In this document: in pieces, positions 21,366-61,020 of the stretch
Position numbering within the stretch: the first letter of the stretch is position 1
Layout: each line of letters begins with the position of its first letter
Source: Candidatus Shapirobacteria bacterium CG_4_10_14_0_8_um_filter_39_15
Lineage (GTDB): Bacteria; Patescibacteriota; Microgenomatia; UM-FILTER-39-15
Direction of reading: 5' to 3'
NCBI GenBank assembly: GCA_002784465.1
Contig: PFLE01000013.1
Location: 10,972 to 74,971, forward strand
Length of the DNA stretch: 64,000 nt
Notes under the pieces: generated by a model
Seen by the model: the letters and a program-made list of their open reading frames with translations, nothing else
Told to the model about the DNA's origin: nothing
Databases searched by the model: none
Translations under genes and position numbers: made by a program

Positions 21366-21369
21366 GAAT

Positions 21370-24363
21370 TTACGGTGCTGGATTTGTCGGACAGCCATTG
21401 GCAACATCTTTAAAAGTACAGGAATTGTCGCAATTTGATAAATAATCACAAGGTGCGGGGGTATGCTCGCCCTGGCTAAAACAACCAAGTTCGATACTGC
21501 CGCAATCGCTAAAGCCCAAATGCAAATGACAACCAGTTGAGTGACCGGTGGTGCCCATAAAACCAATAATTGCTCCCTTACTGACATGCTTACCTAATTC
21601 AGTGGCAATACTTTTAAGGTGTCCATAAAGAGAAAAAAGACCCCCACCATGGTCAATAATAATATAATTTCCATAAGCGCCAAGTTCTAGCTGGTTTTCA
21701 CTGTAAAATATTTTGTAAATCGTGCCGTCTGCTACGGCATGAATGAGGATATTTACATTACTATTGGTACAATTCGTTGGTCCCGGGATATCAATTCCGG
21801 TATGACAATTACATTCGGTTGGGCTAAAAGGATCGTTATGATTGCCAAAAGGGGAAGAACAGGTATGGGAATTGTCAACCGGCCAATAAAAAGGTAAGGG
21901 GGATGGAGGGGCAATGGTTGGAAATTGGGCCGGGCAGCTGGACGAAGAGCCAGTCCAGGGAAATTGCATTCCGCCGCCGTTGGTGGGTAAAATAAAAGCA
22001 CCCGAGGCAATCATTATAATTATAAAAGCCAAAAAGCCAATTGAGCCGGCGCCGACGGCCACCCCGGCGGCAATCGGAGCGCCCGCAACAGAACCGGTGG
22101 TAATGGCAGAAATTAGCGAGGCGGCGCCTGAAGCCATTCCTGAAGCGGCCCCGCCCAGAGAAACTCCTAACCCCGGAGCCATTGCGGCCAAAGACCCGGC
22201 GCCCAAGGCCAAAAGACCTCCGCCCAAGAGAGCCGGTCCGCCCATGACCAGCGTTCCCAATCCGCCCAACATCATTCCTCCGGCAACTAAAGCTCCAGCA
22301 AGCTTTGGCCCCAGGTCTTTAAATTTCTTTTTGATAAAAGAAATAGCATCGGGGATAAAACCAACGACAAAACCAATAGCCGTTCCAACTCCTGGGGCAA
22401 CAGCAGTACCGACCGCTGCCGCACCAGCCGCAGTAGCAATCTTGCTAGCAACTTGTACTCCTAATTTTTTAGCCACTGCCGCGCTGATACCTTTGCCCAG
22501 CTTGCTTTTACTTAAGGCGGAAATAACCCGGCCGAAAGATTTTTGATAGATTGCTGTTTGAATTGAACCGAAGGAAGCGAATCTTCCGCCGGAAAGAAAA
22601 GTAACAAACCTTGTTTCTAAAGAAATTCGGAAAACAGCAATTCTGGGAGTTAAGAGTTGCGGAAGATAAATTCCCAATTCCTTGTCAAAAATTCTCGCCT
22701 TTTTCGTAAGTTGAGACAAGGAGTGATAGTGTTTCAATATTGTAACGACCGGTTTATCTCTGCCGTTTTCCTGCTGAACTTTTAATAATCGTTGGCCTTT
22801 TTCTTCTAATTTAACAATCGTTGGGTGAGTTTTTGGCATTCCCGCGCTCACTAAGACTTTGGCGCTTTCTAAATAGCGTTCACCAAATCTTCCCTCGGCA
22901 ATATCTTGCCATTCCGGAGTTTTGTTTTTGGTATTGATGATTGCGCCGGCAGCGGGAGTGGAGATAATGTGTTCCACTGTTGCCTTGAATCTTGCCATCG
23001 GGGAAACTCTTAACGGTTCTGTTCCGAGTTTAGTAAAGATTTCTTCAGGGAGAGGTTTCTCGATTCTTTCCAGCGCACTTATAATTTGGAGTTTTTGGGC
23101 GGTTTGTTCGACTTTTCCAACCAAGGTTTTGGTTTCGGCTGGTGTTAAACCTACTCCTTCATTTTCCATCGCTTGTTTGACGGCTTGGATGGCCGGGTCT
23201 TGTTCCCAACCTTTGGGTGAAAGAATTTGGGCGGTTAATACCTCGGTAGTTTTCTGACCTACTTTTTTAACAGTTTCTTTTGGAAGACCTTTTAATTTTG
23301 GTTCATCGCCAAAAACCATGGCCACGGTTTCTTCAAATTTTGCTTGTAAGGTTGGCAAGTCTTGAGGCATTTCCGGTTTGGCAACAACTTCTTGAATGTT
23401 TGGCAAAGTTTCAAAATATTTCTGAACCGTTTGGGCCGGAGATGAAGATTGGATTTGTTGAATTAAATCAGTCAATTGTTCTTTTTTCACAAAAACAACG
23501 CCGGCTTCTTGGAGGATTGTTTCAACGACACCTGACAAGGCTTGAGTTTTTTGAGGATTTGGTTCAGAATAATTACGAACAAAAGCCTCGGTAATTTTTT
23601 CCGTGGTTGGTAAAATTGTTGTTTCGGGAAGAGTTGGGTGTTGTTCAACAAGAATTTTTTGAATTTGTTCCTCTAAACCCGCTTTTATATCTGTTGGGAC
23701 TTGAGTTTTAGCCGCAGCGGCTTCTTTCGCCATTTCCGCCAGAGGAATTACCACCACTGGGGCAATCAAGGTTTGAATTTGTTTGGGTTCAAGACCGGTT
23801 TGTTGCTGTAAAATCGTCTTTAGATTTTCTTGTAAAATATTTGTCTTAACTCTTTCTTCTGGGGGAATGGCAATTTGTTGAGCGATTATTTGTTCAATAA
23901 ATGGATAAGCCGTAGCGGCTTGAGGAGTTTTTTCCAAAATCGAGGAAACTTTTTCTCGGATTTCTTTTGGAAGAATTGGTTCAGGAGTCACGGTTGGAAC
24001 CGGGGGTTCATAAACAACCTTTTCTGGAGGTTTTGCTTGAGCGGCTCTTTTTTCAAATTCTTTTTGAGCTTGGGATGCGTTTTGTTGGGTTTGCTGAACC
24101 TTTTCTCTGGCGGCGTCCATTTCCAGGGCCGCATTTTCCAAAATTTCCAAGGGCGGAAGACGGGAATCGTTAACCTCATCGTTATAGATTTTTTGAAGCA
24201 GATTGACGATTGTCAGAAGATTGTCGTCGTCGCGAATGCCATATTCTTTCAAAATCAGCCGGGTGTTGTGCAAAAAAAGAGCTCTCGGTTTTTCCGGACT
24301 GTCGATTAAATCCTGGCCTTCGGTAAGCAGGTCATAAATGTAGGGAAGATATTCGCTTCTCAT
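21370..24363 (-). CDS. Large membrane protein with C-terminal M23 (LytM-type) peptidase domain; candidate T4SS cell-wall hydrolase (PrgK/TcpG/VirB1 analogue)
   Basis: C-terminal HTGIDIPGP...YGNYIIIDHGGGLFSLYGHL...GTTGHSTGCHLH are the M23 motifs. A central Gly/Ala-rich hydrophobic block (about aa 600-760) gives multiple TM segments. The N-terminal 600 aa are helical, Q/E/K-rich and repetitive. Confidence 0.65.
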   Translation of the reverse strand: MRSEYLPYIYDLLTEGQDLIDSPEKPRALFLHNTRLILKEYGIRDDDNLLTIVNLLQKIYNDEVNDSRLPPLEILENAALEMDAAREKVQQTQQNASQAQKEFEKRAAQAKPPEKVVYEPPVPTVTPEPILPKEIREKVSSILEKTPQAATAYPFIEQIIAQQIAIPPEERVKTNILQENLKTILQQQTGLEPKQIQTLIAPVVVIPLAEMAKEAAAAKTQVPTDIKAGLEEQIQKILVEQHPTLPETTILPTTEKITEAFVRNYSEPNPQKTQALSGVVETILQEAGVVFVKKEQLTDLIQQIQSSSPAQTVQKYFETLPNIQEVVAKPEMPQDLPTLQAKFEETVAMVFGDEPKLKGLPKETVKKVGQKTTEVLTAQILSPKGWEQDPAIQAVKQAMENEGVGLTPAETKTLVGKVEQTAQKLQIISALERIEKPLPEEIFTKLGTEPLRVSPMARFKATVEHIISTPAAGAIINTKNKTPEWQDIAEGRFGERYLESAKVLVSAGMPKTHPTIVKLEEKGQRLLKVQQENGRDKPVVTILKHYHSLSQLTKKARIFDKELGIYLPQLLTPRIAVFRISLETRFVTFLSGGRFASFGSIQTAIYQKSFGRVISALSKSKLGKGISAAVAKKLGVQVASKIATAAGAAAVGTAVAPGVGTAIGFVVGFIPDAISFIKKKFKDLGPKLAGALVAGGMMLGGLGTLVMGGPALLGGGLLALGAGSLAAMAPGLGVSLGGAASGMASGAASLISAITTGSVAGAPIAAGVAVGAGSIGFLAFIIIMIASGAFILPTNGGGMQFPWTGSSSSCPAQFPTIAPPSPLPFYWPVDNSHTCSSPFGNHNDPFSPTECNCHTGIDIPGPTNCTNSNVNILIHAVADGTIYKIFYSENQLELGAYGNYIIIDHGGGLFSLYGHLKSIATELGKHVSKGAIIGFMGTTGHSTGCHLHLGFSDCGSIELGCFSQGEHTPAPCDYLSNCDNSCTFKDVANGCPTNPAP

Positions 24364-26180
24364 GTCGTTTTACCCAGCGCTTCTTGCTTTTGCCGCATTA
24401 ATTCTTCAGGCCGGGTGGTAATTAGAAGATGTTCTTCAGGAGAAGCCAAAACACGAATGCGAACGTGATTGGCGCCGGCAAAAAATAACCCTTCACCGAC
24501 GTTGGCAGCCAGTAAAAGATTTTTTTCTCCTTCGGAAAGGTAAAAGACTTTGGCAATTTGGTCAATGGCGGCCGGCGACTGCTTCATTAAAATCTGAATT
24601 GACGAGTTGGTGACAATCGCTTTTCCATAATCAGTGCTCAAAAAATCCTCCACGTCTTGGGTAATCGTGGTCAGCCCCAGCCAGTATTTCCGGGCTCTTT
24701 TGGCAATTGAGTAAATAAAATTGGCCGAATCCGGAAACTTCATCAGATACCAGGCCTCGTCAATAATCAAAATCCGGCGCTTCATATCCCGCTTAACCCG
24801 GGTCCAAATATAATCAAGAATGATAAACATCGCAATCGGTCGGAGAGCCTCCTCGAGACCTTTTAAAGAAAAAACCGTAAAAGCGTTTTTAATGTCAACG
24901 GTTGATCTTTGGTCAAAAATTCCCACAAACGAACCTTTAACGAATTTTTCAATTCGGTCAGCCAGGCCTTTGGCGTCCGTTTCTTCCATGCCGATTAAAA
25001 CTTTATAAAGATCTTCCATTAACGGCGGTTCGTTTTTTTGAGTGGCTGGTTCCGGGGTAATCCCCTTCAGTTTATAAGTCAAAATTAATGCCCGATCTAA
25101 GAGCGCTTCTTCCGAGGGAGTGAGATTGCCCATAATAACTTTAAAAAGCGAATGCAGGGAAAGAATTTTTAAACCCAATTCGTTTTCGTCCTTTTCATAA
25201 ACTTGCGATAAGTCAAAAGGATTTATTTTTGTTCCTGAATTAAAGGAAAACTCAATAAACTCACCGCCGATCGCCGCGGCCAAAGTCTTATATTCGGCCT
25301 CCGGATCAACGACGATGACTTCGGTACCGAACATGAGAGAACGAAGGGCTTCGAGTTTGACCAAATAACTTTTGCCTGCGCCTGACTTAGCAAATATCAC
25401 CGAGTTCGCGTTCTCCATGGTAAACCGGTCAAAAATAATTAAACTTCCGTTATGAAGATTAATGCCATACATAATTCCTTCATTGGCGGTTAGTTCCGAG
25501 GAAGTAAAAGGAAAAGTGGTGGCTAAGCTAGTGGTATCCATATTTCTGGTGATCATCAGCCGGTCAACGCAAAGCGGCAAAGTGGTTTTAAAGCCGTCTT
25601 CCATTTGTAAAGTCGTATTTTTGGAAACAATCAACAAAGAACCAAGGGTCGATTGCACTTGTTTGGTAACTCGGTCCAACTCTTCCAGTGAGTCGGCCGG
25701 GATCGTAATATAAAGCCCGAATTGGAAAAAGCGCTCAATGCCTTTGACCAACTGTTCCTGCAAAGCCCGGGCATCTTCCAGTTTGGCGGCCGTGCTCGGA
25801 TTAATCACCCGGCCTCCTTGGATATCTAAAGAAATTTCCGCTTCCATTTCGGCAATTTTTCGGCGCAAATCGTCTAAAACCGTTTTCCCCTCCACCGGAT
25901 AAATAAACATGGAAATATTTAAAGAATGATCAAAACTGATTAAGGGCGATAGCCAATTAGCGGCCACAAACCGCGGATAGCCGGCGACAAAAAGCGTTCG
26001 GAAATAAGAGTTGTTAATTTTAATATAATTAAAGTCAACTTCAATTGCCGACGGGGCAATAATATCTTTAACCGACAGCATTCCCTCGGCCAATTTCATA
26101 TCTGCCTCGGAACTTGCGGTTGTGCTTTCAGTTCCGGGTTCCGGGTCCTTAGTTTTACTAAAAGGCAATTTAAAATTCAT
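24360..26180 (-). CDS. VirB4/TrbE/TraE-family T4SS ATPase (C-terminal ATPase portion)
   Basis: Walker A FAKSGAGKSY, Walker B ILIIDEAWYLM, plus conserved VirB4 motifs (DPEAEY, TQ...DF). It is 606 aa, shorter than typical ~800-aa VirB4. Confidence 0.8.
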   Translation of the reverse strand: MNFKLPFSKTKDPEPGTESTTASSEADMKLAEGMLSVKDIIAPSAIEVDFNYIKINNSYFRTLFVAGYPRFVAANWLSPLISFDHSLNISMFIYPVEGKTVLDDLRRKIAEMEAEISLDIQGGRVINPSTAAKLEDARALQEQLVKGIERFFQFGLYITIPADSLEELDRVTKQVQSTLGSLLIVSKNTTLQMEDGFKTTLPLCVDRLMITRNMDTTSLATTFPFTSSELTANEGIMYGINLHNGSLIIFDRFTMENANSVIFAKSGAGKSYLVKLEALRSLMFGTEVIVVDPEAEYKTLAAAIGGEFIEFSFNSGTKINPFDLSQVYEKDENELGLKILSLHSLFKVIMGNLTPSEEALLDRALILTYKLKGITPEPATQKNEPPLMEDLYKVLIGMEETDAKGLADRIEKFVKGSFVGIFDQRSTVDIKNAFTVFSLKGLEEALRPIAMFIILDYIWTRVKRDMKRRILIIDEAWYLMKFPDSANFIYSIAKRARKYWLGLTTITQDVEDFLSTDYGKAIVTNSSIQILMKQSPAAIDQIAKVFYLSEGEKNLLLAANVGEGLFFAGANHVRIRVLASPEEHLLITTRPEELMRQKQEALGKTT

Positions 26181-26863
26181 TTTTTCTCCTGTTCAACCAT
26201 GCCGGCCGCATATTCTTTACCGGTGGTTAATTTTTGCCCGCCGGCCGATTCGGGATTATAAATATCATAAAAAAGCTGAATGGCCTCCTGGGTTTTGATT
26301 TCCCTGATTTTTAACCCTAAACGGCCAAACTGGCGGACAATATGATCCCTTTTTGGTAACAAATTCATTTTGGCTTTTTCCAGAACATATTCTTTGGCAT
26401 AGGGCAGATTTCTGGGTTTTTTGACCAAGGCGGTTAAGTTTTGACTGACACCCAATTCCATTGAGGAAAAAGGAATAATAATATAAAAAGTTTTATCCAA
26501 AACATTATTCTTTTTAACCGTTTCTTCGACAAACCGCCGGTATTTGCGCATTTGATCCTGTAAAAGGGAATTGGTTTGTTTTTGGATTTCCCGATCAAGT
26601 AAAGTAAGATATTGAGTGACGTCTTTTTGGCGGGAGCGGATGACCAGCTGAATCGGAAAGGTTAACGAGTTGAGCAATTCAGCATAAGCATAAATCGTTG
26701 CATCCTGCTCTCTTTCGGAAAGTAAGCCGAAATTAATGGCCGTGGTGGATAAAATCAAACAGCACGAACCATCTTTAAGGATTACAACGTTGTCAACCAC
26801 GTCTTCAATGTTCAGATGGTCTTGGGTGGTGCCGCGAATTGGAATGGATAATGGGTCGGGCAT
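26177..26863 (-). CDS. Probable N-terminal domain of a split VirB4 (overlaps the downstream ATPase ORF by 4 nt, ATGA)
   Basis: 228 aa + 606 aa = VirB4 full size. ATGA overlap indicates translational coupling. No separate family recognised for this ORF. Confidence 0.45.
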   Translation of the reverse strand: MPDPLSIPIRGTTQDHLNIEDVVDNVVILKDGSCCLILSTTAINFGLLSEREQDATIYAYAELLNSLTFPIQLVIRSRQKDVTQYLTLLDREIQKQTNSLLQDQMRKYRRFVEETVKKNNVLDKTFYIIIPFSSMELGVSQNLTALVKKPRNLPYAKEYVLEKAKMNLLPKRDHIVRQFGRLGLKIREIKTQEAIQLFYDIYNPESAGGQKLTTGKEYAAGMVEQEKK

Positions 26864-26872
26864 AATATTTGA

Positions 26873-26996
26873 ATAAGTAGATTATCAGTTAATCAGAATA
26901 TCAGGAAAAGAAATCTGAGAGCAGAAACCAGTAAAATTAACCGATTAACTGATCTCTGTTTTACTTTACCTGATTTTCCGATCTACTGATTTACTA
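26873..26996. repeat. Family A palindromic repeat, copy R4 (intergenic inside the T4SS operon)
   Basis: ATTATCAGTTAATCAGAATATCAGGAAAAGAAATCTGAGAGCAGAAACCAG...CTCTGTTTTACTTTACCTGATTTTCCGATCTACTGATTTACT is about 75% identical to R1. Confidence 0.6.
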
Positions 26997-27962
26997 TTAT
27001 TTCGCTTTAATTTCAATCGGTTCTACAATCTCTCCTTTTAATTCTACTCTTACATTATCAAACGCGTAACCATCTTTTTCCAAAAGAATGTCATAAAAAC
27101 CATTGGCCAATTGAGTCGCGGTACGGAATTGACCGATTTTATTGGTCCGTAGGGCCCGAACCGGATTGGCGCCTTGATCCAAAATTTCCAGGATGACATT
27201 TTCCAAAATCCGGCCGTTTTTATCCGTTACCATACCAGCCAAAATATTAGGAATTGTTGGCGCCGACGGCATCGGTATTTCCGAAGAATACCGGGCCGGC
27301 TGCGCTTGAATCGGTTGGCGGAAAGTCGATGGCGGCGGAATATAAGGAATATGCGGGGGAGTGTATTTGGGAATATGAACCGGTTGAATATTTGGCTGCT
27401 GAACTTCTAAAACAAACGGGCCGCTTAATTTGTGAACCTGCACATTTCCAGGATTTGGGATCTCGTTGGTAACCCGGGTAACCGGCGGAGTGGTCATTGA
27501 AAACATATTTTTAATTTGATTTACAAATTCGTCTTCTTTTTGGTCAATGGCGCTTTTTGCGACCGGCAAGGTGGCAACATATTCGATCATTTTAATTTTG
27601 TCTTGAGGAGTGACCACTTGTTGAGCCGGTTCGACTGGAAGTGGCGGCCGTTCTTCTAAAAATTCCGGTTTTTTGGGCGTTTTTTTCCAAAGATACTGGG
27701 TGGGTGAATAAATAGTTTTCAAAAAAGACATAAGCCAGGTTTCTAAAGGTCGTTCTTCAATCGGGAAAAAAGCCAGGCCAACGCCTAAGACCGCCGAAAC
27801 AAAAACCAATGGCCATTTGAAATACCAGGCTAAACCGGAAGCGTAAAAAATTAACGCTACCACCAAACCGCCGGCTAATTCCAGAAATTGTTTTAAGGTC
27901 ATATCACCGACCAGGCGAAATTCATAGCTTGCAATATTTTGCGGGACTGGGTGTTGCTCCAT
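26997..27962 (-). CDS. Membrane protein with two N-terminal TM helices and Pro-rich C-terminal region; possible VirB3-like T4SS component
   Basis: LKQFLELAGGLVVALIFYASGLAWYF...LVFVSAVLGVGLAFF. Position directly upstream of the VirB4 ORFs as in Gram-positive-type T4SS (PrgI/VirB3-like). Confidence 0.35.
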   Translation of the reverse strand: MEQHPVPQNIASYEFRLVGDMTLKQFLELAGGLVVALIFYASGLAWYFKWPLVFVSAVLGVGLAFFPIEERPLETWLMSFLKTIYSPTQYLWKKTPKKPEFLEERPPLPVEPAQQVVTPQDKIKMIEYVATLPVAKSAIDQKEDEFVNQIKNMFSMTTPPVTRVTNEIPNPGNVQVHKLSGPFVLEVQQPNIQPVHIPKYTPPHIPYIPPPSTFRQPIQAQPARYSSEIPMPSAPTIPNILAGMVTDKNGRILENVILEILDQGANPVRALRTNKIGQFRTATQLANGFYDILLEKDGYAFDNVRVELKGEIVEPIEIKAK

Positions 27963-29353: not shown

Positions 29354-29425
29354 TTTTTCCAACCATCTTTAACTCTCGTCTTGTAGACAGGACAAGAATA
29401 TGATAAAATTGTTCCAAATGCAATT

Positions 29426-30703: not shown

Positions 30704-30714
30704 ACTCAGTATAT

Positions 30715-30776
30715 TAAGTATTGTGGGTATATTTTGGATTTCATCTCAAAAAAGAATTAATTTTTCTTTACTACCA
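30715..30776. repeat. Conserved ~55-bp 3' element, copy 1 (also at 32060-32111)
   Basis: agtattgtgggtatattttggatttcatctcaaaaaagaattaatttttc versus aatattgcgggtatgttttagatttcatctcaaaaaagaattaatttttc. Confidence 0.6.
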
Positions 30777-30844
30777 GGCGAGCTTGGTAATTAGATAAAA
30801 AGGACTTGACAAATACAAATTATCAGATATAATGGATTTAGTAA

Positions 30845-32156: not shown

Positions 32157-33929
32157 ATGCCAGATCCAGAACGAAGACTGCCTATTCCTCCGCCCGAGGC
32201 CAGCCAGGAGCCAAGATACGTTCCTCCCGAAATGATGGGAAGTTATTATTATCCAATACAGGATAAGGATTTGGCGGTTGAGATTGTTAAGGCTAACAAC
32301 GAAACCCTTCCTGAAGTAATATCGAATGCGATTTCCTATAGCGAGGGATTAATTTTAGGACGGGAAGTAGATTTAACCGATGATAATGAAGTTCTGTTTT
32401 ATATGGGTTTATTCTTAACCGGCGAGGGTGCGTTAAAAGTTCCGCTATTTTCTTATGCCAATCAGGCTTTGGAAATTAGAACGAGTGGTCGAGTAAGAGA
32501 GATAAGAAGCGAGGCTAGAACAACGCGCAGACCGTTGACAGAGGAAGAAAAGAAAGAGAAAACACTTTTAATTGGGATGGAGAATTGGAACAATGCTCGT
32601 CAAACGGCTCATCAGGCTTTTTTGGAGAGAGTGATAACTTGTGCCTCCGAAGAGGCAGCTGCGGATTTGGCTTTGAATACTCCGGCTCAAAAAGCCCCGA
32701 CAACACCGGACAAAACCGTTTGGCAAAATCTTTTTGGCCAACCGACGAAAGAAGGAGAAGCAACTCCTCAAAGTGAGTTTGGTAATTACGTGGATCTCAC
32801 CATGAGAGGGTTGGTGGCAATAGGAATTCCTCCTAGGGGCACACCCGAGTTTGATCGCTTACACCCTGACTTTAAGAACTTCAATTTTAGAGAAGTTTTG
32901 CCGCCAGCGGATAGAAATATACTTCCATGTACGATCTATACGACGGGTTTTGATAGCGAAAGTTTTAAAGCCTTGCTTAATTATGCGTTGCATATTTCCG
33001 ATGGAAGAATGGATGTTGTTTGGGAAGCGTGGAAATTATTTGAGACATGGGAAATGACAACAAATTTCGGATATATGAAAGATTTTGGGCAGAAGAAAGA
33101 TACCCCTAAATATATACACGGAGATCATAAATTAGGAGGCGCCCCGATAATGAGTGCGCTTTATGCCTGGATAGATCATCTTCCGGAAAAAAGGGCTTTT
33201 GAATATGGATATTGGGCCGATGGTACTTTAAATCCGGAATCGCCTCACAAACTTTCCCATAGCGGACACCCCTTAAGTATTTCTAAAATTCCATCGCTTT
33301 GCGGAGATTTTCTTAAAGAAACGAAGGTTGATGCGCCCGGCGGAGGAAAAAAGTCACTTCGGGAAATTTGGGCAGGGGGAATGTCTTTTGCTGATCGCGA
33401 ATTTCCCTGGACGCATTTAGAACAAGCAACACAAGATATGTCGCGGCTTGAGGAACAGGATTTTGGATCTTACAGCAGTTGGTTATTTAGGCGAAGAAGA
33501 GCTTTCAATATGGTTAAGGATATTAGAGAATTACCCTTCAAAGGTTTAAATGATTATGGAAAAGCAGACTTCTTTTCTTCGAGAATCAGAAACTGGAGGA
33601 ATACTTTGTATTTGCCGAAAGCGGATCAATATACACCAGATCAAAATCCGATGGTTTGGTTAATGGCAGACATCATTTTTAATCATCATCCGGAAACTAA
33701 CAATCATATTCCTTGGGCGCAAAAAAACCCGGATTTAGCTCTAAGAACCAGCCTTGATCCAAAAGAACGGTTTTCTTTTAATCCTATAAACGATCCCGAC
33801 GCAAAAAAACTATCTGCTTGGGAATTTTTAAGAGCTGGTTATGATTCAACCTGGATAACAAAGAAAGATGCTGAGTGGATTCGGGATTATCTTAAGATTC
33901 CTACCGCGGTGGGACAAAGAGGTCTTTAG
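32157..33929 (+). CDS. Hypothetical 590-aa cytoplasmic protein; W/Y/H-rich; no recognisable domain; locally higher GC
   Basis: Long uninterrupted ORF, no TM or signal peptide. First 150 nt about 47% GC versus about 37% background. Confidence 0.5.
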   Translation: MPDPERRLPIPPPEASQEPRYVPPEMMGSYYYPIQDKDLAVEIVKANNETLPEVISNAISYSEGLILGREVDLTDDNEVLFYMGLFLTGEGALKVPLFSYANQALEIRTSGRVREIRSEARTTRRPLTEEEKKEKTLLIGMENWNNARQTAHQAFLERVITCASEEAAADLALNTPAQKAPTTPDKTVWQNLFGQPTKEGEATPQSEFGNYVDLTMRGLVAIGIPPRGTPEFDRLHPDFKNFNFREVLPPADRNILPCTIYTTGFDSESFKALLNYALHISDGRMDVVWEAWKLFETWEMTTNFGYMKDFGQKKDTPKYIHGDHKLGGAPIMSALYAWIDHLPEKRAFEYGYWADGTLNPESPHKLSHSGHPLSISKIPSLCGDFLKETKVDAPGGGKKSLREIWAGGMSFADREFPWTHLEQATQDMSRLEEQDFGSYSSWLFRRRRAFNMVKDIRELPFKGLNDYGKADFFSSRIRNWRNTLYLPKADQYTPDQNPMVWLMADIIFNHHPETNNHIPWAQKNPDLALRTSLDPKERFSFNPINDPDAKKLSAWEFLRAGYDSTWITKKDAEWIRDYLKIPTAVGQRGL

Positions 33930-33931: not shown

Positions 33932-35515
33932 TCATCTTCCCGATAGAATCTTCTTGGTCGCAGCTTCTTTAGTATTCCAAGTAAGGCCTTGCCATTCTGT
34001 AGGTATTACAGGGCTTTTTCCTGTTGTTAAGTTGCGATAGCCTGCTTCAATTCCTCCGGCGGCCCCCATTCTTCCTGCAGCCATTGGAACACCCATTGCT
34101 GCTTCCCCTATTCCTAGTCTATCTCCAAACGATTTCCCAGCCAAAACATTTTTAATCATATCGGCAACATGAGGCGTCATGAGCATCAATCCTAAGGCAA
34201 CAAAGATCATTAAAAAGAAAAAGCTGACTCTGGCTGGGATACTCGCTTGTACGACTTGTTGAACTTCGGCTAAGGTTGATGGTGAGGCACCGGGAATAGA
34301 AACAATTCCTATTCCTGCGAAAGCTCCTTCGAGTAATGGCATTTCATGGAGGGATTCCCTAACCAGAAAATTGGCGATCAAGAGCATTGTTAAAACGACT
34401 GGTAGAACCGCGAGGTTGCTCAAAATATTTTTAAACCAAGCACCGGTTGAGCTGGAAGCAGGAAGGGCGCCAAAAGCAAGAAGAAATGGAGCGAAAATAA
34501 TTGCCAAAACAACATTTACATAAGCCTTAAGCAACGTCCACAAAAGACGAAAAAGGGCGATGATGAAAACGATAGCAAAAATGATCAAAAGAATTAATGC
34601 GCCGACGACTGCGCCGGTAGCCATTCCCGCCGGTCCTCCAAATGGAATACCGGCAACTCCTCCAACAATCATGCCAAGAATAATAAGGAAGACAGCACCG
34701 ATTTCAAACGGTGCCATTGCGGATTGAATAATTAAGCTAGCATTATCAACAACAGAGGTAACCGGGGTCCCGGAGACAAAACTGAAATAATCAGGCCGAA
34801 GTTGATGAAAAACACCCAAAAGAAGATTATTAATAATCCACATAAGGTCGACTAAAAAGCCAGCGATAGCATAGGAAAAAGTGACCAGAATTAAGCCAAT
34901 AATAATTTTTGGGAGGGCTGCCTCGAGGGTAATTATTGTGCGCGGATCCACTTTAAATCGAAACATGATGGCAAAACCGGTAATCACAAAAACCAAAACA
35001 AAAAGAAGGTAAGACATGTCTCGAAAAGCTTTCCAGAGAGGCAAAACCGTTTCCATACTTGTAAATCCAATGCCATTATCTTGTGCATAAGCCGGTTTAG
35101 CGATGCCGACCTTTGAACCAAGATCAGCTAAATAAGTCAATCCCGAAGCGGGAGGTGCTTGGTAAACTAAACCAATAAGAGAAGCGAGGGTTGGAACAAG
35201 TCCGCCATTATCTGTTCCCGGACTTGGGGTACCGCCGCTGGAAACAGTACTCAATTTTGGCATTCCTGCCTGATCCGCAAAAGAAAACATAATGGCTTTA
35301 ATGGTTTCGCGAACAAAACTTTGCAAATTCATATCCGGGGATTCTATTGCTTGCTGATATAAAAGAGGATATGAGGCTTCGGGTGTAGAAAATGCCAGAA
35401 CAGGTTTGGAAACGGCAAGAGAACCTGCAATTAAGAGAAAACCTAAGACAAATATGCGGAATTTGGTGTTCATAATGAATAAATTAAATCTAACATCATT
35501 ATTTTTTATTTTCAA
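33932..35515 (-). CDS. Polytopic membrane protein, VirB6/TrbL-like candidate (T4SS inner-membrane channel)
   Basis: Signal peptide (FLLIAGSLAVSKPVLAF), about 200-aa periplasmic N-domain, then about 6-7 TM helices rich in G/A/I (IPFGGPAGMATGAVVGALILLIIFAIVFII). Next to the pilin operon. Confidence 0.45.
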   Translation of the reverse strand: MKIKNNDVRFNLFIMNTKFRIFVLGFLLIAGSLAVSKPVLAFSTPEASYPLLYQQAIESPDMNLQSFVRETIKAIMFSFADQAGMPKLSTVSSGGTPSPGTDNGGLVPTLASLIGLVYQAPPASGLTYLADLGSKVGIAKPAYAQDNGIGFTSMETVLPLWKAFRDMSYLLFVLVFVITGFAIMFRFKVDPRTIITLEAALPKIIIGLILVTFSYAIAGFLVDLMWIINNLLLGVFHQLRPDYFSFVSGTPVTSVVDNASLIIQSAMAPFEIGAVFLIILGMIVGGVAGIPFGGPAGMATGAVVGALILLIIFAIVFIIALFRLLWTLLKAYVNVVLAIIFAPFLLAFGALPASSSTGAWFKNILSNLAVLPVVLTMLLIANFLVRESLHEMPLLEGAFAGIGIVSIPGASPSTLAEVQQVVQASIPARVSFFFLMIFVALGLMLMTPHVADMIKNVLAGKSFGDRLGIGEAAMGVPMAAGRMGAAGGIEAGYRNLTTGKSPVIPTEWQGLTWNTKEAATKKILSGR

Positions 35516-35594
35516 GACCCTAAAATTAAACTTGTTCCGAGAAAATTAACAATATTGTTAATTTGTTGGGAAGTATATTATTACCAGCGTCCCC

Positions 35595-35649
35595 TTGACA
35601 AAAACTTATTTTTTAGCTAAAATCTACTGGATGCCGTAAAAATTACGGC
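35595..35649 (+). promoter_or_regulatory. Promoter TTGACA-17-TAAAAT followed by inverted repeat GCCGTAAAATTACGGC, upstream of abiEi (likely autoregulatory operator)
   Basis: ccccttgacaaaaacttattttttagctaaaatctactggatgccgtaaaaattacggc. Confidence 0.45.
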
Positions 35650-35664
35650 TTTTAGTAGCATTAT

Positions 35665-36249
35665 ATGATTAACAACGACTTTATTTTACAACTTTATTAT
35701 CGGCCGGAAACGGTTTTCACTATTAATGAGATTGCCCAACTCTACCCTGACGTTTCTTACGAGAGTGTGCGTGACCGCCTATATTATTTTGCTAAAACCG
35801 GGAAATTGAAACGGCCTCACCAGGGGATTTATGCGAAAAACGACTACCATCCTTTTGAATTGGCCAATAAACTTTATAAACCGTCATATATCAGTTTGGA
35901 AACTGTCCTGGCAAAACAAGGCGTGGTCTTTCAGTCTTACAAAACAATTTTTGTTGTTTCCTATTTGACAAGAACAATAACCATAAACGAGACAGAAATC
36001 CAGTATCGGCAAATTAAAGGAGAAATCTTGACCAATACTGAAGGAATTGATCAGAAAGATGGTTATTTTACGGCTACCCGCGAGCGGGCGTTTTTAGACG
36101 CAATTTATATCTATAAAAATTATCATTTTGACAATTTAGGGGCAATTGATTGGAACGAAGTTGAAGCCCTTAAAAAAATCTATAAAAGCAAAATCTTTGA
36201 AAAAAGAGTTGGGGAGTATTATCAATTATCCAAGGAGGAACATGGTTAA
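35665..36249 (+). CDS. AbiEi-like antitoxin / transcriptional regulator (type IV TA, abortive infection)
   Basis: 194 aa, N-terminal wHTH-like; overlaps the AbiEii start by 8 nt; typical AbiEi-AbiEii gene order. Confidence 0.6.
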   Translation: MINNDFILQLYYRPETVFTINEIAQLYPDVSYESVRDRLYYFAKTGKLKRPHQGIYAKNDYHPFELANKLYKPSYISLETVLAKQGVVFQSYKTIFVVSYLTRTITINETEIQYRQIKGEILTNTEGIDQKDGYFTATRERAFLDAIYIYKNYHFDNLGAIDWNEVEALKKIYKSKIFEKRVGEYYQLSKEEHG

Positions 36250-36946
36250 CATTGATTTGCACCGAACCATTTTTATTAATATTTTACGGGAAATTTATTC
36301 TGATCCAAGTTTAAGAAGTGTTTTGGGTTTTAAGGGCGGAACCGCGGCCTTTTTGTTTTACGGATTGCCCCGTTTTTCCGTTGACTTGGATTTTGATTTA
36401 CTGGATTTGAAGCAAAAAGAAGTCGTTTTTACCCGGTTAAAAGAAATTCTACCCAATTTTGGTACTCTGACAGAGGCGATCGAAAAACGATATACTCTTT
36501 TTTTCCTTCTGAATTACCAAAAAGGAGAAAGAAATTTGAAAGTGGAAATCTCCAAAAGACCGGTTAAGGCGGATTTTACTATTAAAAATTATTTGGGTAT
36601 TTCGATGTTGGTAATGGCGCCGGCTGATATGGCGGCGGGGAAGATTTCCGCCTTGTTGACTCGAAAACGATTTGCCTCTCGAGATGTTTATGATGTTTGG
36701 TTTTATTTAAAAAATAATTGGCCAATTAACGAGAAGTTGTTGCAGGAAAAAACGGGAATGTCGTTGGCTAATGCTCTAAAAAAAGCACAGGAAAAGGTAA
36801 ATGGTCTTAAAAAAACAGAGTTATTGTCTGGTTTGGGTGAACTTTTGGATAATAAACAAAAAATGTGGGTGAGAGAAAAGTTAATTGAAGAAACAATTTA
36901 TTACTTAAAACTATATCAATCACAAATATTAGACTTAAGACATTAG
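36242..36946 (+). CDS. AbiEii/AbiGii-family nucleotidyltransferase toxin (DUF1814)
   Basis: FKGGTAAFLFYGLPRFSVDLDFDLL matches the GGTAL...RFSEDLDF signature of the family. Confidence 0.75.
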   Translation: MVNIDLHRTIFINILREIYSDPSLRSVLGFKGGTAAFLFYGLPRFSVDLDFDLLDLKQKEVVFTRLKEILPNFGTLTEAIEKRYTLFFLLNYQKGERNLKVEISKRPVKADFTIKNYLGISMLVMAPADMAAGKISALLTRKRFASRDVYDVWFYLKNNWPINEKLLQEKTGMSLANALKKAQEKVNGLKKTELLSGLGELLDNKQKMWVREKLIEETIYYLKLYQSQILDLRH

Positions 36947-37014
36947 TTATAAATTTGAATATCGAATATCGAAATCCGAAACAATTTTCAAAATTCAAAA
37001 TTTCAAGTTAAAAT

Positions 37015-37330
37015 TCAAAAGTTTTTGCTTTTAAGTTTGATTACGCCAGCGGCTAACATATTAGCAATTTCCGTAACTTCATTTAGCAATCGTATAATAC
37101 TTTCTTTTTTCTCTACCAAGCCGGAATCTCTTAAAAGGCATAACCAATATTTTGTTTCGTTGGCACTTCTTAAAGCAATCTCGTAAAATTTCTTGAACTC
37201 CAAGCGGGAGCTAGAAGCTCCTCCTTCAATAAGATTTGCTCCGATTGACATTGCCGCCCTTAATAATTAATCAGCAATAACCCAAGCGGCTCGTTTATTA
37301 GGAAGAGTGTCCATTAACGTAATTATAGCG
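37015..37330 (-). pseudogene. Truncated or frameshifted four-helix-bundle (IVS/Avd-like) gene, copy 2
   Basis: The ORF MSIGANLIEGGASSSRLEFKKFYEIALRSANETKYWLCLL covers only the C-terminal half of the family. An upstream out-of-frame remnant (MDTLPNKRAAWVIAD*) resembles the RRAAxSI segment. Confidence 0.5.
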
Positions 37331-37445
37331 AGGCTAAATTGATAACACCGTGTCTTTAAATCACTTTTAAATTTTGAATTGTAATTTTGCATTTTGAATT
37401 TTGCCTTTTGACTTTATGTAATTAAATTTTAAATTTCAAATTGGT

Positions 37446-40747: not shown

Positions 40748-41059
40748 TTACGAGCTGGGAATACTAAAGTTGAGAACATCAACACCGGTGAATTGCCAAA
40801 TAAATTTCATAATCAACCAGATAATTACCAGCATCACCAGGCCAAAAATGGCATAGGTTATGGTTTGAGAAGCCGAGGCAGACGCTTTTGGATCTCCTCC
40901 GGAAGTCATATATTTAAAACCACCCATGATCAACAAGATAAATAAAAGCAAAACCCCCAGCTGGGCCGCGATATTCAAAATAATTTTAAATATGCACTCG
41001 AATCCTTGAAGAGTTGCAACGCCGCCGATTGTACATTTAGGATCTTCCCAAATAGCCAT
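40748..41059 (-). CDS. VirB2/TrbC-like small pilin paralog
   Basis: Two hydrophobic helices flanking the loop motif GGFKYMTSGGDPKAS...AIFGLVMLVI. This pattern is shared by all eight paralogs. Confidence 0.55.
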   Translation of the reverse strand: MAIWEDPKCTIGGVATLQGFECIFKIILNIAAQLGVLLLFILLIMGGFKYMTSGGDPKASASASQTITYAIFGLVMLVIIWLIMKFIWQFTGVDVLNFSIPSS

Positions 41060-41142
41060 ATATTTAGTTTATCAGACCATAATAAAAACACAATACCCCG
41101 AGCCAAGCTCCGGGTATTGTAATTCTTGTACAAAAATCCAAC

Positions 41143-41535
41143 CTAAATCGTTGGAATATTTACGTTGAGAATGTGGATGTCAAAGAATTTCTCAATTAAG
41201 CTCGTAATTGCCCAAGCCGAGAAAACAATGACTAGACCGATTAAAGCGGCCGTGATTCGATTCTTCGCGCCCTCGGTTCCAGCCTTATCACCGCCGGAAA
41301 CTAGCCATTGAATACCGCCGATGACCAGCATAAAGAAAAAGGCCAAAGCGGCAACTACCATAATCAATTGAACAATTGCCGAAAGCATTGAACCAATATC
41401 TAAATTAGCCATATTAACCCATTGGCCAGTGGTGGGTTTTAAATTAATTATGTCGTTTGCTTGGGCAAAGGCTGACCCGGCTAGGTTAACCATTAAGCTT
41501 GCAGTTCCTGCTAAAGATAAAATTGTTTTTTTCAT
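41143..41535 (-). CDS. VirB2/TrbC-like small pilin paralog with signal peptide
   Basis: LVIGGIQWLVSGGDKAGTEGAKNRITAALIGLVIVFSAWAI. Confidence 0.55.
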   Translation of the reverse strand: MKKTILSLAGTASLMVNLAGSAFAQANDIINLKPTTGQWVNMANLDIGSMLSAIVQLIMVVAALAFFFMLVIGGIQWLVSGGDKAGTEGAKNRITAALIGLVIVFSAWAITSLIEKFFDIHILNVNIPTI

Positions 41536-41562
41536 TTTCTCACCTCCTTTCGAACTACTTAT

Positions 41563-41889
41563 TTATTTTAACATAATCGCGTCAATATTTATGAGCGTTA
41601 GATCCATATTGAAAAATTTACCCACCAAGCCGATTACGGCATAAGCGCTAAAAACTAAAATTAAACCAATAAGAGCATGGGTCATTTGTTCCTTGGATGC
41701 TTCTGTTCCTGCCTTATCGCCGCCGGAAGTCATATATTGGACGCCGCCGATGACTAAAAGCACAAAACTAACAAGAGAAGCAATCACGAAAAGAAGAGTA
41801 ATCATGGCCGGCAGGAATTTATTTAAGAATTCAACCCCGTTAAGAGCTTGTAAATTAGTTGATAAAGCTGGATTTGTTATTTCTGCCAT
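41563..41889 (-). CDS. VirB2/TrbC-like small pilin paralog
   Basis: LLVIGGVQYMTSGGDKAGTEASKEQMTHALIGLILVFSAYAV. Confidence 0.55.
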   Translation of the reverse strand: MAEITNPALSTNLQALNGVEFLNKFLPAMITLLFVIASLVSFVLLVIGGVQYMTSGGDKAGTEASKEQMTHALIGLILVFSAYAVIGLVGKFFNMDLTLINIDAIMLK

Positions 41890-41893
41890 TTAA

Positions 41894-42325
41894 TTATTGT
41901 AAAGTCACTGAACTAGCACAACTTGGGTCAATAAACTTACCCGGGTTTAGAATATCTAAACCAAGGATTTTGCTTACAAGATCAATAAGAAAAATTCCGG
42001 CAATAATAATTACTAAACCAACCAGCCCGTGAGTAATTCTTTTTTGGGCATTTTCTGTAGCCATTTTGTCCCCGCCGGCGGATAACCAGGCAAGCGCTCC
42101 GCCGAACAATAAAAAGACAAAATATAATCCGGCGATAATCGTTAATAGTCCCACAATCGTTGACATTGCCATGTTCAATTTATCGATTGCTCCACAAGGA
42201 TGCTTACCCCCCAAATTCATTGAAACAATATCACCAAGCTTACCTAATCCTTGTAACCAGCCCACGCTCGGACCCCAGTCGTCTATTGGTGTTTTATTTT
42301 GTGCTAGTAAAGTTAAAATTATCAT
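41894..42325 (-). CDS. VirB2/TrbC-like small pilin paralog
   Basis: LLFGGALAWLSAGGDKMATENAQKRITHGLVGLVIIIAGIFL. Internal start MIILTLLAQNK chosen to avoid overlap with the next gene. Confidence 0.5.
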   Translation of the reverse strand: MIILTLLAQNKTPIDDWGPSVGWLQGLGKLGDIVSMNLGGKHPCGAIDKLNMAMSTIVGLLTIIAGLYFVFLLFGGALAWLSAGGDKMATENAQKRITHGLVGLVIIIAGIFLIDLVSKILGLDILNPGKFIDPSCASSVTLQ

Positions 42326-42693
42326 AAATTTGGGTTTGGTGTATAAATTTGCGGAAAAAGGATTGCCCCGGCATCTTGAAACAAAAGCCAACCGAAAATT
42401 GCTGCCAAAACAAACGATCCGGCTACTAAGAATAACCCAATTAGGGATTGGGTTAATTTTCCAACCGCCTTTTCCACTTGTTTGGAGTCGCCTCCAGCAG
42501 ACATAAATTGGTAACCAGCCATAATGACATTAATAAAAGCATAAAGCCCGGCAATAACAATAACAAGCTTAATGCCGTTGTTTAAAAAAGAAACAAGACC
42601 TGGAGCGATGCCCTTACTTCCGGATAGATTTGAATAAACATCAACTCCTGGTGGAGGGTTAATTTTACCTAACGGACTGGTTGGTATCGCCAT
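42322..42693 (-). CDS. VirB2/TrbC-like small pilin paralog
   Basis: IMAGYQFMSAGGDSKQVEKAVGKLTQSLIGLFLVAGSFVL. Confidence 0.55.
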   Translation of the reverse strand: MAIPTSPLGKINPPPGVDVYSNLSGSKGIAPGLVSFLNNGIKLVIVIAGLYAFINVIMAGYQFMSAGGDSKQVEKAVGKLTQSLIGLFLVAGSFVLAAIFGWLLFQDAGAILFPQIYTPNPNL

Positions 42694-42697
42694 ATTG

Positions 42698-43021
42698 TTA
42701 CAAAATCTTAAAGCCAGTAATTGCTTCTACTATCTGGATTATCCAATAACTGGTAAAAATAATCAAGAACCCGATTAAGGCTGAAGTTACCGCCGAAGCC
42801 CCCTGACCGGTTTTTCTTGGGTCGCTTTCCTGGCCGCCGGCAATCACCGCCAACCCCCCGCCGATTAATAAAAAGAAAAGCAAAATTCCCGCCAAAATAT
42901 AAATGTTGGGTAAAAGAACGGAAACTAGAGAACCCAAACTGTCAAAAAGAGCAGGAGCATAAGTGTTTTTGTCAATGGTAACAGCGGCATAAGCATGATT
43001 CACAAGATAAGAATATAACAA
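42698..43021 (-). CDS. VirB2/TrbC-like small pilin paralog (first gene of the operon)
   Basis: LLIGGGLAVIAGGQESDPRKTGQGASAVTSALIGFLIIFTSYWI. Confidence 0.5.
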   Translation of the reverse strand: MLYSYLVNHAYAAVTIDKNTYAPALFDSLGSLVSVLLPNIYILAGILLFFLLIGGGLAVIAGGQESDPRKTGQGASAVTSALIGFLIIFTSYWIIQIVEAITGFKIL

Positions 43022-43039
43022 TTAGAGAAGGGGTGTCAA

Positions 43040-53308: not shown

Positions 53309-53668
53309 ATGAACGAAGATGCTTCTTACAAAAAACTAATAATTTGGCAAAAGGCCGATCTTTTTGCTAGAGAAATCTATAAAGTCACAGTATTTTTTCC
53401 CAAAGATGAAATATATGGTTTAACCTCCCAGATACGAAGAGCTGTTCTCTCCGTTGTTCTTAATATTATTGAAGGTTATGCAAGAAATAATAAGAAAGAA
53501 TTTAAGAATTTTTTAAGGATTGCTTATGCTTCGTTGGTTGAGGTTGAATATTTGCTCGAATTTTCATCTGTTAGAGGCTACATAACGAAAGAAAAATATT
53601 TTTTTCTTAATGGTTTAAGAGACGAATGTGGAAAAATTCTTTGGAAGTTTATGCTTTCCCAAAAATAG
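53309..53668 (+). CDS. Four-helix-bundle protein (23S-IVS / Avd superfamily), copy 3
   Basis: KKLIIWQKADLFAREIYKVT...GLTSQIRRAVLSVVLNIIEGYARNNKKEFKNFLRIAYASLVEVEYLLEF. Confidence 0.75.
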   Translation: MNEDASYKKLIIWQKADLFAREIYKVTVFFPKDEIYGLTSQIRRAVLSVVLNIIEGYARNNKKEFKNFLRIAYASLVEVEYLLEFSSVRGYITKEKYFFLNGLRDECGKILWKFMLSQK

Positions 53669-53680: not shown

Positions 53681-53760
53681 CTGGCGTACTAGTGTACTAG
53701 TGTTCTGGAGTACTCGTTTGTTGGTTCTGGTGTACTGGCTCACTAGTGTTCTAGTGTACT
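53681..53760. repeat. Right arm of CACTAGTAC-word inverted repeat
   Basis: ctggcgtactagtgtactagtgttctggagtactcgtttgttggttctggtgtactggctcactagtgttctagtgtact. Confidence 0.6.
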
Positions 53761-54257: not shown

Positions 54258-54761
54258 TTACAATCCAGGTATTCCTAAAATATCCATTCCAATTAATCTT
54301 AACAAAAAGACTGAAAAAATGATTAGTAAAAGTCCGGTTAAAGCCGAGGTAATGGTTTCCTTGCCGGCCTGAATGCTTTTTGGGTCACCACCAGAAGCCA
54401 TAATTTGGAAAGTGCCGAAAAGCATTAATAAAAAAGCAATTCCGCCGCCAATCCCAACAGCTAACCCTAAAATGTTAGTAATAAAATTGGTTGGGTTGAA
54501 AGTATCAATACAGCCAATGGCGGTTTTAAGGCCGGCGGGACCACTTGAAGTGGTACAACTAGAACTGTCAGGGTTGGCATCCACACAGCAAACATGATTG
54601 CCTGGAGCACAAGTTCCGACCGAATGCTCGGTGTTATCACAAGTGAACTTACAGATTCCATCACCTCCGTGACAAGTAACGACCGCGCGGGCCGTATTAT
54701 AAAAAAAAGAAAAACAAAGTGTTGCAGCAATAAAAACACCAAAAAGAAAAAACTTCTTCAT
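54258..54761 (-). CDS. VirB2/TrbC-like pilin paralog with N-terminal defensin-like cysteine domain
   Basis: Signal peptide; TCHGGDGICKFTCDNTEHSVGTCAPGNHVCC (C-x6-C-x3-C-x9-C-x6-CC, close to the beta-defensin spacing C-x6-C-x4-C-x9-C-x6-CC); then MLFGTFQIMASGGDPKSIQAGKETITSALTGLLLIIFSVF. Confidence 0.55.
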   Translation of the reverse strand: MKKFFLFGVFIAATLCFSFFYNTARAVVTCHGGDGICKFTCDNTEHSVGTCAPGNHVCCVDANPDSSSCTTSSGPAGLKTAIGCIDTFNPTNFITNILGLAVGIGGGIAFLLMLFGTFQIMASGGDPKSIQAGKETITSALTGLLLIIFSVFLLRLIGMDILGIPGL

Positions 54762-61010: not shown

Positions 61011-61020
61011 TTCGCTCTTT

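Follow-up and report, generated by a model that had tools for sequence, protein, structure and literature searches.

Eight T4SS_pilin-family genes in a conserved six-plus-two order, probably VirB2-like pilins, near the origin region of a Candidatus Shapirobacteria genome

The locus considered here lies in a 64,000-nucleotide (nt) stretch of DNA, referred to as the window, from Candidatus Shapirobacteria bacterium CG_4_10_14_0_8_um_filter_39_15 (contig PFLE01000013.1, positions 10,972 to 74,971), and it raises the question of what an ultrasmall member of the Patescibacteria (Candidate Phyla Radiation, CPR) would do with eight different genes for small pilin-like proteins, six of which stand in tandem directly upstream of a gene for a giant secreted protein. 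We consider, with a probability of roughly 0.6, that the eight genes encode the VirB2-like pilins of a chromosomal type IV secretion system (T4SS) of the monoderm type, related to the mating-pair formation (MPF) class MPF-FATA and situated near the origin. This reading is based on PF18895 membership together with hairpin topology, on linkage to genes for VirB3, TrsD, VirB4 and a wall hydrolase, and on the conserved six-plus-two order. It should be noted that the feature, which is real, is already known from Patescibacteria and does not amount to a new type of system. Wang et al. (2023, Cell) described an essential pilin series within the T4SS cluster of S. epibionticum (Southlakia) (PMC10633639); T4SS and pilin series are essential to the epibiotic life of this only genetically tractable Patescibacterium, and what the Patescibacteria T4SS does has been called completely unknown (PMC10633639, PMC11665869). 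Quinonero-Coronel et al. (2025, Microb Genom), using PF04956 and PF18895 on 3,035 Patescibacteria genomes, found 441 arrays of 2-11 pilins in 383 Patescibacteria assemblies, especially of Microgenomatia, with a mean within-array identity of 25% and a maximum of 54%; the T4SS was often near dnaA and usually without a relaxase (PMC12102498). In a review, a pilus-like structure was raised as a possibility (PMC12857230).

The pilin genes and the giant gene are given below, with product lengths in amino acids (aa) and PF18895 scores. Position labels run from A-6 to A-1 along the array, A-1 being next to the giant gene, and the distal pair is labelled D01 and D02.

42698..43003, minus strand: p6 (A-6), 101 aa from GTG 43003, the most likely start (the longest open reading frame, ORF, starts at TTG 43021); 18.3 bits, E 0.0024
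42322..42693, minus strand: p5 (A-5), 123 aa, 4 nt past the p6 stop; 25.3 bits
41894..42325, minus strand: p4 (A-4), 143 aa, ATGA overlap with the p5 stop; 21.9 bits
41563..41889, minus strand: p3 (A-3), 108 aa, nearest paralogue of p2; 34.2 bits
41143..41535, minus strand: p2 (A-2), 130 aa, candidate major pilin; 42.1 bits, the best of the eight
40748..41059, minus strand: p1 (A-1), 103 aa, giant gene 5 nt downstream; 35.7 bits
37446..40742, minus strand: giant secreted Cys/Trp-rich protein, 1098 aa, starting 5 nt after p1
54258..54761, minus strand: p8 (D01), signal peptide, six-Cys N-terminal module and pilin hairpin; 33.8 bits
53759..54253, minus strand: p7 (D02), signal peptide and, in this genome, six-Cys module; 37.5 bits

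The six tandem ORFs and the 1098-aa ORF behind them occupy the minus strand between 43021 and 37446. The p6-p5 and p4-p3 junctions measure 4 nt each, p5 and p4 share an ATGA stop-start overlap, the p3-p2 gap of 27 nt includes AAAGGAGGTGA, 83 nt separate p2 from p1, and 5 nt separate p1 from the giant gene. A published definition of a pilin array is at least two pilin genes in tandem or one gene apart, with low within-array identity (PMC12102498); here six genes are spaced -4 to 83 nt apart, with identities of 27-49%. A preliminary description had reported these six ORFs and two further paralogues at 53.8-54.8 kb, eight in 64 kb, all of which is borne out (PF18895 matches of the pair lie at 53759-54253 and 54258-54761) except for two start codons in the array. 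Its size range of 103-165 aa has to be revised at both, as p4 starts at ATG 42325 and has 143 residues instead of 165, while p6 most likely starts at GTG 43003 and has 101 instead of 107. A promoter-like site overlaps the longest-ORF start of p6, which points to GTG 43003 as the start, and this start fits the N-termini of the orthologues. Both corrected starts match the NCBI gene models (p6 is PIU03482.1; a 165-aa p4 is not in the NCBI records), in which the eight pilins are entered as 'hypothetical protein' (COT44_03465-03490, COT44_03555 and COT44_03560).

All eight proteins belong to PF18895 (T4SS_pilin), the family of T4SS-type pilins that the preliminary description had named beforehand. 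In the Pfam hidden Markov model (HMM) search, p1, p2, p3, p7 and p8 scored above the gathering score of 26.6 bits (33.8-42.1 bits), and p4, p5 and p6 scored below it (E 2e-4 to 0.0024); PF18895 is the top match of each of these three, and each has an orthologue called PF18895 in relatives. A lineage-built HMM matched all eight at E 1e-24 to 1e-33 (3.5e-24 for p6) and no other window ORF of 60 aa or more. The nearest NCBIfam model, NF045849 ('pilin-like' proteins of Mycoplasma integrative and conjugative elements, ICEs), was matched sub-threshold by all eight. The PF18895-type family is very large, the profile of the eight pilins matching 76,062 representatives of 50%-identity clusters at E <= 1e-3.

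Each protein also displays the two-transmembrane hairpin that had been proposed, with two hydrophobic segments of ~20-30 residues (peak hydropathy 2.0-3.0 in a Kyte-Doolittle scan) joined by a short polar loop. The loop reads (S/A)GGD(K/P) in six of the eight, SAGDPK in p7 and GGQESDPRK in p6, and helix 2 bears T-x2-(A/L)-x-G-(L/F), with the D, T and G invariant in the alignment of the eight. A recognisable Sec signal peptide is found only in p2, p7 and p8, p2 (…SAFA↓QAND) being the sole array member with a classical one. The class III prepilin motif G↓(F/M)-(T/S)-L-x-E, searched for as a regular expression, is absent from the first 45 residues of all eight, in agreement with the earlier view that these are not type IV pilins. 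As a separate observation, the top matches of the pilin profile are single ORFs outside the window with 2-17 tandem pilin hairpins ('poly-pilins'; P0181, P0183, P0210 and others); one, of 552 aa, combines a signal peptide with six hairpins. Because the linkers of P0183 and P0210 carry (V/A)YAQ soon after helix 2, resembling an AxA↓Q signal-peptidase site, their sequence suggests that poly-pilins are polyproteins cut into separate pilins.

The secretion genes to which the pilins are linked stand beside dnaA and dnaN:

20397..27962, minus strand: core T4SS operon beside dnaA/dnaN
26997-27962, minus strand: PrgI/VirB3-like protein
26177-26863, minus strand: TrsD/TraC-like protein, 228 aa (TraC-like Pfam matches on the orthologues)
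24360-26180, minus strand: VirB4 ATPase
21370-24363, minus strand: M23 peptidase, 997 aa
20397-21587, minus strand: 396-aa protein without an assigned family
19267-20406: dnaN
17680-19017: dnaA

The pilin array is 15 kb from this cluster of VirB3, TrsD, VirB4 and M23-peptidase genes, and chromosomal VirB4, TrsD and PrgI genes, typically near dnaA, characterise a T4SS of the Patescibacteria type (PMC12102498). Among the window ORFs scanned, neither a relaxase nor a coupling protein turned up, nor did a recognisable VirB5, VirB7, VirB9 or VirB10. An integrated conjugative element was considered and rejected, given the uniform GC content, the interleaved housekeeping genes and the lack of a relaxase or integrase among the ORFs scanned.

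How stable this arrangement is could be judged from relatives. From the 60 homologues of the giant protein, 19 related loci were reached, and all their ORFs were searched with the pilin-domain HMM. Most loci with enough flanking sequence have six tandem pilin genes directly upstream of the giant gene, and most of these six-gene loci have a further pilin pair a few kilobases away, beside SpoIID and UppS; departures in array size are L014 (five genes), L008 and L013 (seven) and L019 (nine). In L001 and L003, the order runs from SpoIID and two pilins, through further genes, to a divergent polyprenyl synthase gene, six pilins and the giant gene, followed by a polytopic protein of ~500 aa, a protein of ~590 aa on the other strand and, further along, PrgI, TrsD and VirB4. 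The window keeps this gene order, interrupted by lineage-specific insertions, and the short contig of L002 has the array together with the giant and polytopic genes. Calling the locus an unusual expansion, as the preliminary description did, is thus not justified: arrays of 2-11 pilins have been published (PMC12102498), and most related loci have the same six-gene array.

For orthology, the position-labelled pilins of the window and of 11 other loci were compared by all-against-all BLASTP. With few exceptions, the best match of each window pilin in each of the 11 loci is the pilin at the same position. The best match of p6 is the most promoter-proximal array gene in 11 of 11 loci (A-6 in 10, A-5 in L014), and that of p1 is A-1 in all 11. 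The exceptions are an occasional swap between A-3 and A-2, which are the closest paralogues (49% identity), the five-gene array of L014, where counting from the giant gene moves A-6 to A-3 by one label with gene order kept, and loci whose contigs lack the distal pair. Positional orthologues are 33-73% identical (43-73% for those of p5) and in-genome paralogues 27-49%, with the giant protein being only 26-42% identical across the loci compared. Since a positional orthologue is closer than any in-genome paralogue, the copies predate the divergence of these genomes and each has been maintained. Judged by these comparisons, the eight pilins are old, separately kept lineages that form a fixed set of six plus two, a pattern that favours specialisation over antigenic variation or recent amplification. 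Of the 'antigenic or functional diversification' suggested earlier, functional specialisation is supported by the sequence data, and the antigenic alternative is disfavoured by the positional orthologues in 11 loci. Several contigs among L004-L016 are labelled 'uncultured Gammaproteobacteria' or 'Pseudomonadales' in third-party annotation (TPA) records of metagenome-assembled genomes (MAGs); their gene content is that of Patescibacteria, and the labels are probably wrong.

Expression signals divide the set further. Three motifs of the array are placed as follows:

43012..43039, minus strand: promoter-like site of the p6-p2 unit (TTGACA, 16 nt, TG-n-TATATT; 11 of 12 consensus matches)
41084..41120, minus strand: terminator-like hairpin and T-run after p2 (core stem 41114-41097)
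41060..41074, minus strand: extended -10 (TGaTAAACT) of p1, 6 nt before the p1 ATG; putative internal promoter

The promoter-like site of p6-p2 stops 8 nt before GTG 43003, by which a leaderless mRNA is implied, and in nine other loci the arrangement TTGAC-N17-TGnTAnACT stands 5-8 nt before the A-6 start. In the window, p2 is the sole array gene with a strong Shine-Dalgarno sequence (AAAGGAGGTGA); across the loci, such a sequence (AAAGGAGGTGA or AAGGGGGTGA) precedes A-2 in 10 of 10 and rarely the other five genes. The p2-p1 intergenic region folds with -27.8 kcal/mol (z -4.8). The gap after A-2 measures 83-144 nt in 8 of 10 loci, most of them with a hairpin that is often followed by a T-run, and in most of the longer A-2/A-1 gaps the hairpin is followed by TTGAC-N17-TAnAnT 5-8 nt before the A-1 start; this motif lies upstream of A-1 in seven other loci, and the promoter-like arrangement recurs 5-8 nt before the D01 start. 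From these motifs we infer three leaderless units, namely p6-p5-p4-p3-p2 with the terminator, p1 with the giant gene (and ancestrally the polytopic gene), and p8-p7. The array and the giant gene had been described as co-transcribed, which is retained for p6-p2 as one unit and for p1 with the giant gene, but not across the p2-p1 junction, where hairpin, T-run and a putative second promoter intervene. As p2 alone combines a strong Shine-Dalgarno sequence, a Sec signal peptide and a terminator-like hairpin behind it, it is likely the major subunit.

A repeated intergenic element of ~130 nt was also observed, in five copies with 51 invariant columns (3754-3868, 16652-16727, 17536-17598 (inverted), 26864-26994 and 54808-54929). 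It stands in constant orientation to the next gene, which is that of a solute-binding protein, yidC, dnaA, the TrsD/VirB4 part of the T4SS operon and p8, respectively. For the element, Rfam gave no match and the consensus fold is weak; a shared regulator site that ties origin-region genes to T4SS genes is one possibility, a small mobile element another.

A signal-like hydrophobic segment stands at the N-terminus of the giant protein, which contains 3.4% Cys and 2.5% Trp, compared with 1.0% and 1.3% in other long ORFs. It is 100% identical to the 'hypothetical protein' COT44_03460 of Candidatus Shapirobacteria bacterium CG08_land, and its 60 homologues, none of which has an informative Pfam domain, are 26-46% identical. 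The family has a signal peptide and many invariant residues, cysteines included, and its outer regions vary strongly between lineages; a PDB profile search with the family returned nothing meaningful. Wherever a related locus has enough flanking sequence, the giant gene adjoins the pilin array; this position, the composition and the signal-like segment agree with the earlier account of a Cys/Trp-rich secreted protein accompanying the array. In L002, the giant homologue P0059 (1248 aa) carries an in-frame C-terminal pilin hairpin whose ten best matches are all D01-type pilins, p8 being the best (47%). Orthologues of D01 generally consist of a signal peptide, an N-terminal extension of very variable length, usually containing Cys, and the hairpin; by this architecture the p8-type pilins look like display pilins. 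D02 orthologues elsewhere are short and without the six-Cys module that p7 has here.

This module, C-x5-6-C-x3-C-x9-16-C-x5-9-CC, lies at the N-termini of p8 and p7 and forms the last 35 residues of the giant protein; with its glycines it reads C-x3-GG-x-C-x3-C-...-C-...-CC. It is also found in the D01 pilin of L007 and had 0 occurrences in shuffled ORFs. The copies are located as follows:

53843-53950: p7
54585-54674: p8
37455-37559: C-terminus of the giant protein
810-1460 of L007: D01 pilin

Beta-defensin models (PF00711/PF13841) gave p8 17.0 and 15.3 bits, below the cutoffs of 22.2 and 21. The spacing C-x6-C-x3-C-x9-C-x6-CC resembles the beta-defensin pattern, which we regard as a lead only.

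The third member of the downstream unit and its neighbours in the window are:

35516..37445: lineage-specific insertion with an AbiEii toxin-antitoxin pair and a truncated 23S_rRNA_IVP gene
33932..35515, minus strand: polytopic membrane protein, 527-aa ORF (513 aa in NCBI), candidate VirB6 analogue
32157..33929, plus strand: 590-aa conserved neighbour, convergent with the polytopic gene, no Pfam match

The preliminary description had this VirB6-like gene at 33932-35515 precede the array, which has to be turned around, as transcription passes through the giant gene before it reaches this one. In L001, L002 and L003, the polytopic gene directly follows the giant gene; p1, the giant protein and a polytopic protein of ~500 aa form a conserved downstream unit. 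As to the name VirB6-like, the evidence is divided. The protein had no Pfam match in the window scan; for its family of 579 homologues, no Pfam domain, PF04610 included, is among the 120 matches listed, and hhalign between the family and PF04610-positive proteobacterial VirB6 proteins gave a probability of 0.1%, that is, no profile similarity. On the other side, the AlphaFold model (predicted local distance difference test, pLDDT, 75.6) contains long transmembrane helices, and its four best PDB matches are chains of the R388 TrwJ/VirB5-TrwI/VirB6 stalk, with weak scores (E 0.06-0.27, probability 0.57-0.98, target-normalised TM 0.29-0.44). VirB6 has been called 'scarce' in Microgenomatia, 'suggesting extreme sequence divergence' (PMC12102498). 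The polytopic family is a reasonable candidate for a divergent VirB6. A gene for 587-626 aa occupies the place of the 590-aa neighbour in L001 and L003. In related loci this gene is always convergent with the polytopic one, and the protein may be a further T4SS component.

Taken as the pilin set of this T4SS, the eight proteins would be inserted in the membrane as VirB2 is, with both termini outside and the GGD loop inside, and a VirB4 machine would extract them and build a filament or a conduit spanning the wall. In such a scheme, p2 would make up the bulk of the structure, with the remaining five pilins of the array as low-abundance specialised subunits (e.g., for initiation, base or tip). 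The protein p1, made with the 1098-aa disulfide-rich protein and ancestrally with the polytopic VirB6-like protein, would belong to a base or tip module recalling the virB5-virB6 order. The giant protein may be the distal component that contacts the host, and the p8-type pilins would display variable Cys-rich domains, and in L002 the whole giant protein. By analogy with the essential pilin series of Southlakia, the apparatus presumably serves epibiotic host interaction and not conjugation.

Several points that weigh against this reading need to be considered. We know of no T4SS pilus seen in any Patescibacterium, and the filaments imaged on CPR cells have, to our knowledge, been attributed to type IV pili. 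A recognisable signal peptide is missing from five of the eight proteins. PF04956 (TrbC/VirB2) matches p2 best, with 15.9 bits (E 0.016) under the cutoff of 27.9 bits, and none of the seven others. A comparison by hhalign of 45 CPR pilins with 7 annotated VirB2/TrbC proteins from plasmids gave a probability of 12.6% (E 0.0023) over 74 colinear columns, and a PDB profile search with the pilins returned no sequence relative and no pilin. Homology to classical VirB2/TrbC is, on these profile comparisons, at most plausible; of the two models named earlier, PF18895 matches all eight proteins and PF04956 reaches its cutoff in none. In the window, the 1.9-kb insertion separates the giant from the polytopic gene. 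The giant-pilin fusion is one case among 60 homologues and, being a single case, is only suggestive of a link between giant protein and pilins. The AlphaFold model of the giant protein is poor (pLDDT 54), the Foldseek matches obtained with it are noise, and its role is guesswork as long as its fold is not predictable. Finally, the promoters, the terminator and the major-pilin assignment are read from sequence motifs only.

Among the other explanations, one would keep the family and abandon the filament, the proteins being small membrane subunits of a translocon or of a short stalk spanning the wall, or lipid-associated chaperones, for which 'pilin' is a family name only. We regard this as unlikely without being far-fetched, since related monoderm T4SSs lack pili (PMC12102498, PMC12857230), the nearest NCBIfam model is the Mycoplasma ICE 'pilin-like' one with all eight below its cutoff, homology to true VirB2 is unproven, and five of eight lack a signal peptide. 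Yet eight different subunits, one of them strongly translated, resemble a major pilin with minor pilins more than a fixed membrane complex, and secreted N-terminal domains of very different sizes, once a protein of 1100 aa, stand ahead of the D01 hairpin, a fusion by which the N-terminus would be displayed outside the cell. An extended form of the pilin-set reading, in which the appendage is a heteropolymer of eight non-interchangeable VirB2-like subunits and the giant protein, attached via a p8-type pilin, is the missing tip or host-contact analogue of VirB5 or an adhesin, accompanied by the divergent VirB6, seems to us doubtful as a whole. The VirB2 filaments known to us are homopolymeric.

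It is improbable, in our estimation, that the copies are interchangeable major pilins switched for antigenic or host-range variation. The paralogues are indeed very divergent (27-49% identity), lineages differ strongly in the D01 N-terminal domains and in the outer parts of the giant protein, and an analogy with Bartonella and Anaplasma has been raised (PMC12102498). Against switching, each paralogue is closer to its positional orthologue in the 11 loci than to its in-genome paralogues, number and order are largely fixed (six in most loci; five, seven and nine in a few), and the signals are asymmetric, the strong Shine-Dalgarno sequence lying before A-2 in 10 of 10 loci and rarely elsewhere. 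Moreover, the long direct repeat families found in the window include nothing around the array that resembles switching or recombination repeats, the only family that touches pilin genes (D2) being the conserved coding motif of the pilin domain. Subunits of a type IV pilus or competence pseudopilus, or hydrophobic ORFs arisen by chance, are hardly credible and stand refuted by the present results. In their favour one could cite the small size and hydrophobicity of the proteins and the abundance of type IV pili in CPR genomes; however, none of the eight has the G↓F-x-x-x-E class III signal, all match PF18895, and they are kept as genes in many genomes, with the 76,062 cluster representatives mentioned above.

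Other features of the window are noted for completeness. Defence and toxin-antitoxin cargo lies within the conserved locus at 28510-32059 and 35665-36946 (the AbiEii pair); the 28.5-32 kb insertion contains an MNT/HepT pair and two AAA_14/DUF4143 ATPases, with a 60-nt repeat behind each of the ATPases. Three genes of the 23S_rRNA_IVP/bAvd-like four-helix-bundle type are present (28010-28432, 37015-37251 and 53309-53668), one of them truncated, and in L003 two such copies (1184-1555 and 2026-2415) flank a distal pilin. As these three genes suggested a diversity-generating retroelement, this was considered and rejected, no reverse transcriptase and no template/variable repeat pair being found. 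Shortly past the tmRNA gene (60647-61009) stand two direct repeats of 50 nt (61018-61067 and 61143-61192), which are identical and each contain a GC-rich hairpin and a T-run.

What the comparison adds are hypotheses: the fixed set of six plus two, a candidate major pilin, the giant partner with its pilin fusion and a candidate divergent VirB6. In PMC10633639 and PMC12102498 we did not find descriptions of the positional orthology of this set, of a single strongly translated member, of the giant secreted partner and its pilin fusion, or of the polytopic VirB6 candidate. The finding of many pilins is turned into testable statements, such as which paralogue is the bulk subunit and that each is individually required. 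The giant secreted and polytopic proteins would belong to one module, and the polytopic protein would be a candidate to fill the VirB6 gap of Microgenomatia.

Among known systems, type IV pili and the pseudopili of type II secretion systems (T2SS) offer a working analogy, with one abundant and several conserved low-level paralogues and large adhesin-like tip proteins alongside, although they are made of an unrelated protein family by an unrelated assembly machine and have the class III signal that is missing here. The effector T4SSs of Anaplasma and Bartonella also have several divergent tandem virB2 copies; these are read as variation against host immunity, whereas the copies described here are old, separately conserved orthologue groups. 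The proteobacterial MPF-T pilins VirB2/TrbC (A. tumefaciens VirB2, R388 TrwL) are likewise small proteins of two helices and a loop encoded with VirB3 and VirB4, and the signal peptide of p2 has an AxA↓Q-type site as theirs do. In contrast, sequence similarity to them is not significant, the loop is acidic with GGD here and basic there, eight paralogues stand against one, the cell here is a monoderm, and the system is known here from genes alone. The R388 VirB5-VirB6 stalk (PDB 7o3v, 8rt9) shares with the downstream unit the order of a secreted-protein gene and then a polytopic gene beside pilin genes, the giant protein being about five times larger than VirB5. The closest correspondence is with the VirB2-like arrays of Patescibacteria: tandem PF18895 genes of low identity in a member of the Microgenomatia, VirB4, TrsD and PrgI near dnaA, no relaxase nearby, and six array pilins as in Southlakia. 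Nothing essential differs from the published arrays, of which the locus in the window is another instance.

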